In this document: piece after piece, positions 10,092 through 10,222 of the stretch
Layout of the letters: every line of letters begins with the position of its first letter
Numbering within the stretch: position 1 is the first letter of the stretch
DNA from: an uncultured Peptococcaceae bacterium
GTDB taxonomy: Bacteria > Bacillota > Dehalobacteriia > UBA4068 > UBA4997
Direction of reading: 5' to 3'
Assembly (NCBI GenBank): GCA_947647555.1
Contig: CANSKT010000004.1
Coordinates: 1-60,257, forward strand
Length of the DNA stretch: 60,257 bases
Translations under genes and position numbers: made by a program
The notes under the pieces: generated by a model
The model's database searches: none
Seen by the model: only the letters and a program-made list of their open reading frames with translations
What the model was told of the DNA's origin: nothing

Positions 10092-10222
10092 GGGGGTACG
10101 GCTCAATCAGCTGAGGAAGTCCTTAATGTATGGTGAGAATTAGGGGTGCATAAGCGGTTGCTTGGGAGAGCGCTTGAATGGCATTCAAGAGGTCAGCGGT
10201 TCGATCCCGCTTATCTCCACCA
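10092..10222 (+). tRNA. tRNA-Ala(GGC)-like gene with a ~55-nt insertion in the D-loop (probably a pseudo-tRNA)
   Basis: The acceptor stem gggggta/tatctcc forms 7 bp including G3:U70. D-stem arms are gctc (10101-04) and gagc (10168-71). The anticodon arm is cttga-atGGCat-tcaag and the T arm is agcgg-ttcgatc-ccgct, followed by A-CCA. From 10162 on it matches canonical bacterial tRNA-Ala. Position 8 is C rather than U. Confidence 0.55.

Follow-up and report, generated by a model that had tools for sequence, protein, structure and literature searches.

A displaced 3′ fragment of tRNA-Ala(GGC) as the probable attR of a defence island integrated by a large serine recombinase

Genes and tRNA fragments at the locus

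The window (the whole stretch of DNA analyzed here, 60,257 nt) is contig C4 of G000, a metagenome-type assembly with 162 contigs, 96% completeness and a mean GC content of 0.469. Its left part is low in GC, at 0.346 for positions 1–8000 and 0.423 for 8000–10162, as is the tail of a second contig of the same assembly, C147 (0.356). To the right of 10162, GC is 0.474. The low-GC part encodes a broken restriction-methylase, an ATPase and a YoeB/RelB toxin–antitoxin pair, followed by a recombination module (Table 1). Pfam matches to this cargo are N6_Mtase/Eco57I, HSDR_N, YoeB and RelB, and no phage structural genes were found among the island ORFs scanned. The restriction-methylase (1076–6434; 5383–5500) is broken into two ORFs (322 and 489 aa), with HSDR_N followed by N6_Mtase/Eco57I.

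The recombination module contains the gene of a large serine recombinase (LSR). In the protein, Resolvase (PF00239, 1.2e-20) covers residues 6–160, Recombinase (PF07508, 2.3e-14) and Zn_ribbon_recom (PF13408, 2.6e-9) are also matched, and the catalytic-serine motif YRVSTAKQ occupies residues 9–16. These are the features of the class, namely a serine-nucleophile catalytic domain together with Recombinase and zinc-ribbon domains within 450–700 aa. Upstream of the LSR gene lies a 49-aa ORF that matches no Pfam family. By tblastn, similar sequences (46–85% identity) are found 150–300 nt upstream of 7 related recombinase genes, making this ORF a candidate directionality factor or regulator. Palindromes resembling GGCAAnATTGCC are present in the non-coding left ends of islands (window 20–45; L044 17700–17290) and once in the right flank (10352–10366), and may be operator or iteron sites.

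Table 1. Features of the island end and of the adjoining tRNA sequence in the window
Feature	Position	Strand	Evidence
Right-hand ~10.2 kb of the putative integrated island	1..10162		GC, Pfam, homology to G006 island
49-aa ORF with ribosome-binding site, upstream of LSR gene	8128..8277	+	tblastn conservation
Large serine recombinase (LSR), 542 aa, intact	8425..10053	+	Pfam, catalytic motif
Putative relic, like right arm and T-run of tRNA terminator	10067..10081	+	direct repeat of 10245–10259
Putative decayed tRNA-Ala 5′ fragment (~bases 1–24) in P side	10092..10119	+	partial tRNA match
P arm, island-side half of probable attR	10120..10162	+	homology to G006
Common core TGGGAG, tRNA bases 17–22	10163..10168	+	attL/attR overlap
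Displaced 3′ 60 nt of tRNA-Ala(GGC), B′ side of probable attR	10163..10222	+	identity to C147:2930–2989
Terminator hairpin of target tRNA	10226..10258	+	stem-loop read in sequence

The recombinase stop (10053) is separated by 38 nt from 10092, where a preliminary description placed a single tRNA-like gene with an insert of ~55 nt (10092–10222). All letter positions that it gave across this stretch are correct. The sequence gggggta (10092–10098) can pair with tatctcc (10212–10218), and gctc (10101–10104) and gagc (10168–10171) are separated by 63 nt. The sequence from 10172 to 10222 forms the anticodon arm (GGC), variable loop, T arm, discriminator A and CCA without a flaw. ARAGORN called no tRNA anywhere in the window, 10092–10222 included, and Rfam found none in the window at gathering score. 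Under permissive settings, the Rfam tRNA model (RF00005) matched only 10160–10211 (model positions 10–63), with 26.7 bits against a cut-off of 29. Permissive matches to microRNA and YrlA models over the terminator were weak, at the level expected by chance, and were set aside.

Other pieces of the same tRNA lie on C147. Positions 10163–10222 are 100% identical, over 60 nt, to C147:2930–2989, which is part of an intact tRNA-Ala(ggc) gene called by ARAGORN at C147:2914–2989. Of the 47 tRNAs in the 96%-complete assembly, no other is Ala(GGC). The order on C147 is host promoter, tRNA bases 1–22 (gggggtatagctcagctgggag), 82 unrelated bases, the complete tRNA with its terminator, and AT-rich DNA. 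With this layout and the window taken together, the genome contains tRNA-Ala(GGC) as one whole gene and as two fragments, 5′ and 3′, which both break inside the same six letters, TGGGAG. Judged by this identity, the 3′ 60 nt are certainly tRNA sequence; they are a displaced host fragment and not a working gene. The two halves that had been described as one gene were never one gene; the true 5′ partner is on C147.

Junctions, same-genus islands and the proposed integration event

We read the two breakpoints as attachment-site junctions, attL on C147 and attR in the window. The former reads ...gctcagcTGGGAG followed by tgtaaacc..., and consists of tRNA bases 1–22 and an island arm, P′. The latter reads ...gcggttgctTGGGAG followed by agcgc..., and consists of the other island arm, P, and tRNA bases 17–76. 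Beyond the common core, P and P′ share nothing with the tRNA. The crossover most likely took place within GGAG (10165–10168); this overlap is common to all subfamilies of the recombinase, and sequence cannot tell the exact dinucleotide. The host tRNA is rebuilt at neither junction. The intact tRNA on C147 sits between attL and the island cargo and is island-borne, as is all DNA from one crossover to the other.

Thus, 10120–10222 is very probably the attR of an island of ~11.3 kb, formed when a large serine recombinase acted on an attB in the D-arm of the host tRNA-Ala(GGC) gene, with a spare tRNA carried by the island. What the sequences show directly is this layout, its homology, its recurrence in relatives and the natural forms of attP described below. 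The preliminary description had attributed the splitting of a tRNA at an island boundary to site-specific recombination, with a crossover in the D-loop, an unusual place; this part agrees with our analysis. For tRNA-gene islands with tyrosine integrases, Williams (2002) is reported to have placed crossovers in the anticodon loop, the T loop or the 3′ end.

The island would consist of C147 from about base 2831 to the contig end, plus positions 1–10162 of the window. In the proposed event, the LSR, presumably the one encoded here, would recombine the island attP with the D-arm attB of the host gene, with exchange in TGGGAG. At attL, the host promoter and tRNA bases 1–22 would become joined to P′. 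The complete island-borne tRNA-Ala(GGC), 82 nt past the attL core, would replace the broken gene. It is presumably both expressed and needed; in the integrated state its sole evident promoter would be that of the host gene, reading through the 5′ fragment and P′. At attR, the orphaned 3′ 60 nt would be fused to P and keep the old terminator. The attP predicted for this island is ...gcggttgctTGGGAGtgtaaacc.... An exact-pattern search for this junction in genome and viral contigs gave no match. Neither attP nor the empty-site joint was found in Logan contigs of four mouse-gut runs, where unitigs are short and the tRNA stretch is common to many organisms, so these contigs are uninformative on excision. 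The island may still be able to excise.

A whole homologous island lies on a single contig of a same-genus genome, G006. Reading from the promoter, the contig has two units of 5′ fragment plus 82 nt, the tRNA, 17 kb of other restriction/ATPase cargo, the recombinase, the P arm and the 3′ fragment. Identity to this island is 81–93% for the C147 tail, 76% for window 2–630 and 87% for window 7866–10223, and the two recombinase proteins are 94% identical. These end matches indicate that C147 adjoins C4 with a gap of ~100 nt or less, which gives the island its size of ~11.3 kb; the join rests on G006 synteny, with zero sequence overlap between the contigs. Between G000 and G006, the block made up of the island-borne tRNA, the 82 nt and the terminator has 93% identity, and the left chromosomal flanks of the two genomes are unalignable.

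The G006 recombinase gene (L044, G006:C11, 419–2044) contains one in-frame TAA, and recombinase fragments with stops were seen at G010:C57:129–773 and G008:C39:4527–5015. Judging from these reading frames, islands are decaying in place in several relatives.

For an island-free comparison, as suggested in the preliminary description, we examined G001. This same-genus relative has the left flank of C147 (94% identity) followed by a plain, uninterrupted tRNA-Ala gene. The extra 104 nt are missing there, as is any homologue of the recombinase, and this outcome favors the recombination proposed in the preliminary description, which was to fail if island-free relatives had the same 131 nt. No empty site with both flanks was found in close relatives, the right flank of G001 being different. 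A search for synteny of the right flank (10224–22000) in same-genus genomes also failed. The homologous genes are on other contigs, far from tRNA-Ala, so a two-flank empty site is not reconstructable. Distribution of the recombinase is patchy: it occurs in 4 of 61 relatives, all of one genus, and is also present in other Clostridia families. Within ~1 kb after the G001 tRNA-Ala gene, a stretch (L045, G001:C32, 9147–9638) is 75% identical to window 29–503. The island may have taken up host DNA from downstream of its target, or else G001 retains an island remnant without junctions.

Solo units of a 5′ fragment plus P′ occur in some relatives. G010 has one; in G006 (L044, 17930–18150) two, and in G062 (L088, C46, 1–420) three, stand in tandem before the intact tRNA-Ala gene. 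Such units are best explained by island loss, either because the spare tRNA and the orphan fragment underwent homologous recombination or because nested pairs of islands were excised, and would record earlier island visits. The P′ of the first G062 unit is of another type, which would fit successive visits by different recombinase subfamilies.

On the other side of the island, positions 10054–10162, of which 10092–10162 had been taken for part of the single gene, are kept beside the recombinase gene in relatives, as the island's own P side. Window 10105–10223 is 94% identical to the G006 island, and a GGGGTGC-type motif ~20 nt from the crossover recurs across the recombinase family. The preliminary description had pointed to ataagcgg as an inverted copy of tRNA sequence. 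These letters belong to the P half-site region and are absent beyond the closest relatives; being kept only there, the pairing of ataagcgg with ccgcttat was rejected as a structural feature. An echo of GGGGTGCATAAGC, from the P arm, at 7880–7892 was not above chance at 3 mismatches.

The 5′ piece of the supposed gene, inside island DNA and 44 nt away from the crossover, agrees with tRNA bases 1–14 at 12 of 14 positions, a score equalled by 19 of 2000 shuffles, and by itself this match is suggestive of a tRNA relic. The match gains weight from G006, which retains different tRNA letters at the same site: G006 keeps TATAG, which is TACGG in the window, and the window keeps GGGGG, which is ACAAA in G006. 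At this site G006 reads ...acaaaTATAGtTaA, and the consensus of G006 and the window is the tRNA 5′ end. We therefore read the piece as a decayed tRNA 5′ fragment from the island's ancestor, not as the partner of the 3′ fragment. It was probably left by an older nested event; we tried several schemes of nested integration and excision for its origin, and none gives a clean account. The terminator-like repeat upstream of it (ctataagagctttta versus ctgtaagagctttta) is present in the G006 island too.

Related recombinases in other Clostridia

We compared 36 related recombinase loci, with 52–94% identity, from Oscillospiraceae, Lacrimispora, Yanshouia and Neglectibacter. Downstream of the recombinase gene, 20 of the 36 have a tRNA-Ala 3′ fragment that starts at base 17–20; the rest are mostly cut contigs. 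Loci with this layout come from Oscillospiraceae and Lachnospiraceae, isolate genomes among them. The fragment lies 75–175 nt after the recombinase stop in 18 of these 20 loci, and ~1.85 kb after it in the other two (L065 and L067).

An uninterrupted attP, of the form P–GGGAG–P′ and with a near-perfect inverted repeat, lies beside the recombinase gene in two relatives, L075 and L053. That of L075 reads GGGGGTGCACACCCGACATATC, then GGGAG, then CGCGAGATGTCGGGTGTGCGACCCC, with 13 P bases inverted in P′, and a complete tRNA-Ala(GGC) follows ~95 nt later. The L053 site is similar, and the tRNA-Ala copy after it ends at base 45. These natural attP sites have no tRNA bases 23–76 at the core. Lacrimispora xylanisolvens DSM 3808 has P′ of the L075 type after the 5′ fragment and P before the 3′ fragment, with a spare tRNA present. 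Hence attP, attL and attR all occur naturally in that subfamily.

Neglectibacter timonensis SN17 has a 5′ fragment, P′ (...CGGTTACGTATCCCC; 68 nt in all) and a full tRNA. Further on, by 16 and 20 kb, P arms (GGGGGTACGTAACCG...) precede 3′ fragments, forming a double attR. When P was compared with the reverse complement of P′, 14 of 15 positions matched in N. timonensis and 10 of 10 in G061, with at most 2 of 2000 shuffles as good. For P and P′ of the window's own island, the inverted repeat is not above chance. The first orphan 3′ fragment of N. timonensis (L085, 44825–44882) has two changes relative to the intact tRNA, which keep a T-stem pair (G–C to U–A), and another working tRNA-Ala copy was probably its source. 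Immediately beyond the first attR, L085 (N. timonensis C13) has a perfect palindrome at 44943–44985, made up of a tRNA-Ala 5′ fragment and its inverted copy, and another inverted 5′ fragment lies at 49983–50007.

Alternative readings and known systems

We considered whether the window's island sits in a nested or tandem array. In this case, an older, decayed element would have supplied both the 3′ fragment and the DNA to its right, as its left end with spare tRNA, terminator and leader region, and the island would have entered that element's tRNA copy. Positions 10163–10372 are 81% identical to the stretch after the island-borne tRNA in G006, and ~150 nt to the right of the junction (10260–10372 beyond the terminator) resemble the left end of the G006 island, so the displaced fragment may belong to the tRNA copy of an older resident element. 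However, the terminator loop and the first bases beyond it match the uninterrupted G001 gene rather than island-borne copies: the loop is ttcaa in the window and in G001, and tctaa in the island-borne copies of G000 (C147) and G006. Repeated hits are common, as seen from the tandem scars or double attR of G006, G062 and N. timonensis, but the 60-kb contig has no second recombinase gene or 3′ fragment further right. The GGCAAnATTGCC-like palindromes, found both in island left ends and at 10352–10366, would also fit such an array, whereas the GC content to the right of the junction is that of the genome mean. On balance we regard an array of this kind as unlikely, and favor integration of the LSR island into the host's own tRNA gene.

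A second possibility is a classical tRNA island, with bases 17–76 and the terminator as its att core. The C147 tRNA would then be the regenerated host gene and the 82-nt unit would be debris. A direct repeat of ~105 nt (the 3′ 60 nt plus terminator; 92% identity overall) does flank the island, yet no tyrosine integrase (PF00589) was found on C4 or C147, and the unit of 5′ fragment plus 82 nt is absent from G001. Moreover, in relatives the spacer after the 5′ fragment starts with the inverted P arm, at the match levels given above for N. timonensis and G061, and natural attP joins P directly to this spacer, as predicted by short-core exchange only. We judge a classical island to be very improbable.

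It is scarcely conceivable that 10092–10222 is one unusual tRNA or tRNA-like RNA, with an intron or regulatory extension as its D-loop insert: the minimum-energy fold of the 131 nt pairs the acceptor strands and forms the anticodon and T arms, but it is no better than that of shuffles (z = -0.15), neither ARAGORN nor Rfam at gathering score called a tRNA, the closest relative (recombinase 94% identical) does not retain the 5′ piece, no promoter-like site was found upstream, and the insert is conserved as a recombinase flank, not as part of a tRNA. Equally hard to credit is an assembly or binning artefact that joined the island contig to a tRNA repeat, for although the assembly is of metagenome type with 162 contigs and summed metagenome depth over the tRNA stretch is very high, an independent 2019 mouse-gut study yielded a contig that crosses the junction exactly (9848–10189, 0 differences), contigs of two further studies run from 10194 to 10929, and the same junction type is found in G006 and in isolate genomes.

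Integration of the LSR island in a host tRNA gene resembles tRNA-dependent lysogeny, known from the tyrosine-integrase actinobacteriophages Fionnbharth, LeBron and Gaia, in which a short core leaves the tRNA unrepaired and the element carries a spare (Guerrero-Bustamante and Hatfull 2024, PMC10865867). Here, too, the host tRNA is rebuilt at neither junction and the spare tRNA is on the element. Those temperate phages of Actinobacteria have tyrosine integrases, arm-type sites and cores of ~8–10 bp at the anticodon-loop/3′ half, whereas the present case involves a large serine recombinase, a D-arm crossover and a defence island free of phage genes, in gut Clostridia. Another difference is that the spare tRNA lies 82 nt from the crossover, and so would be readable by the host tRNA promoter through attL. 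The need for the spare was shown by genetics in the phages; here it is presumed, on the indirect evidence that the assembly has no other Ala(GGC) gene among its 47 tRNAs.

Large-serine-recombinase elements, as reviewed (PMC5704250), sit in protein-coding genes that are dispensable or split on purpose, whereas the target here is a tRNA gene and the element supplies a full replacement. phiC31, Bxb1, A118, TP901-1, SPbeta SprA, Tn4451 TnpX and the streptococcal rumA-targeting mobilisable elements use the same three-domain enzyme as found here. Serine-recombinase elements also share with the window short att sites, few identical crossover bases and a recombinase gene beside attP at one end; their inverted attP half-sites are here clear in relatives. 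Recent large surveys assign the preference for RNA genes to tyrosine integrases (PMC13626063). Islander/TIGER islands (PMC4383910) are similar in having an intact tRNA on one side, a displaced 3′ fragment on the other, an integrase at the end and defence cargo. But they use tyrosine integrases, and an identity block of at least 30–45 bp rebuilds the gene at the junction. In our case the junction stays broken, with the 5′ fragment leading into P′ instead of the remaining tRNA bases, and the island contains the intact gene separately, as a complete copy. In the literature searched, coverage of which was incomplete, we found no relevant paper in which a serine recombinase targets the D-loop or D-arm of a tRNA.

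These comparisons make it reasonably likely that a widespread LSR clade of gut and soil Clostridia (Oscillospiraceae, Lacrimispora, Neglectibacter and Yanshouia) uses the D-arm of tRNA-Ala(GGC) as attB, moves defence islands, brings a spare tRNA read via attL and leaves countable scars. If true, this would be a serine-recombinase counterpart of tRNA-dependent lysogeny, undescribed as far as the literature was searched. The strategy of breaking a tRNA and bringing a spare, demonstrated in 2024 for tyrosine-integrase phages of Actinobacteria only (PMC10865867), would extend to another enzyme class, another tRNA position, non-phage defence islands and another phylum. The scars of 5′ fragment plus P′, of which up to three in tandem were seen, would be a fossil record for counting past integrations. 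What looks like a split tRNA would be explained as an ordinary by-product of integration, and annotators could take D-arm-truncated tRNA fragments beside serine recombinase genes to be att junctions. These att sites occur naturally, are short and have been conserved in many Clostridia, and a D-arm attB in nearly every genome could provide a serine-integrase landing site for gut anaerobes that are hard to engineer.

A promoter scan of 9900–10500 found no consensus promoter, so the outward P-side promoter of relatives is not claimed for the window's island. The sequence (T)CAGCTGRG, which follows the relic match, is kept across the recombinase family, and in several members it falls within the spacer of a consensus outward promoter. 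P-side sigma-70 consensus promoters were seen after the recombinase stop in L054 (4630–4670), L074 (4035–4075), L051 and L052. With the forms TTGACA-17-TATACT, -TATAAT and -TAGAAT, the promoters of these relatives are directed across the crossover and would read the spare tRNA in the circular form.
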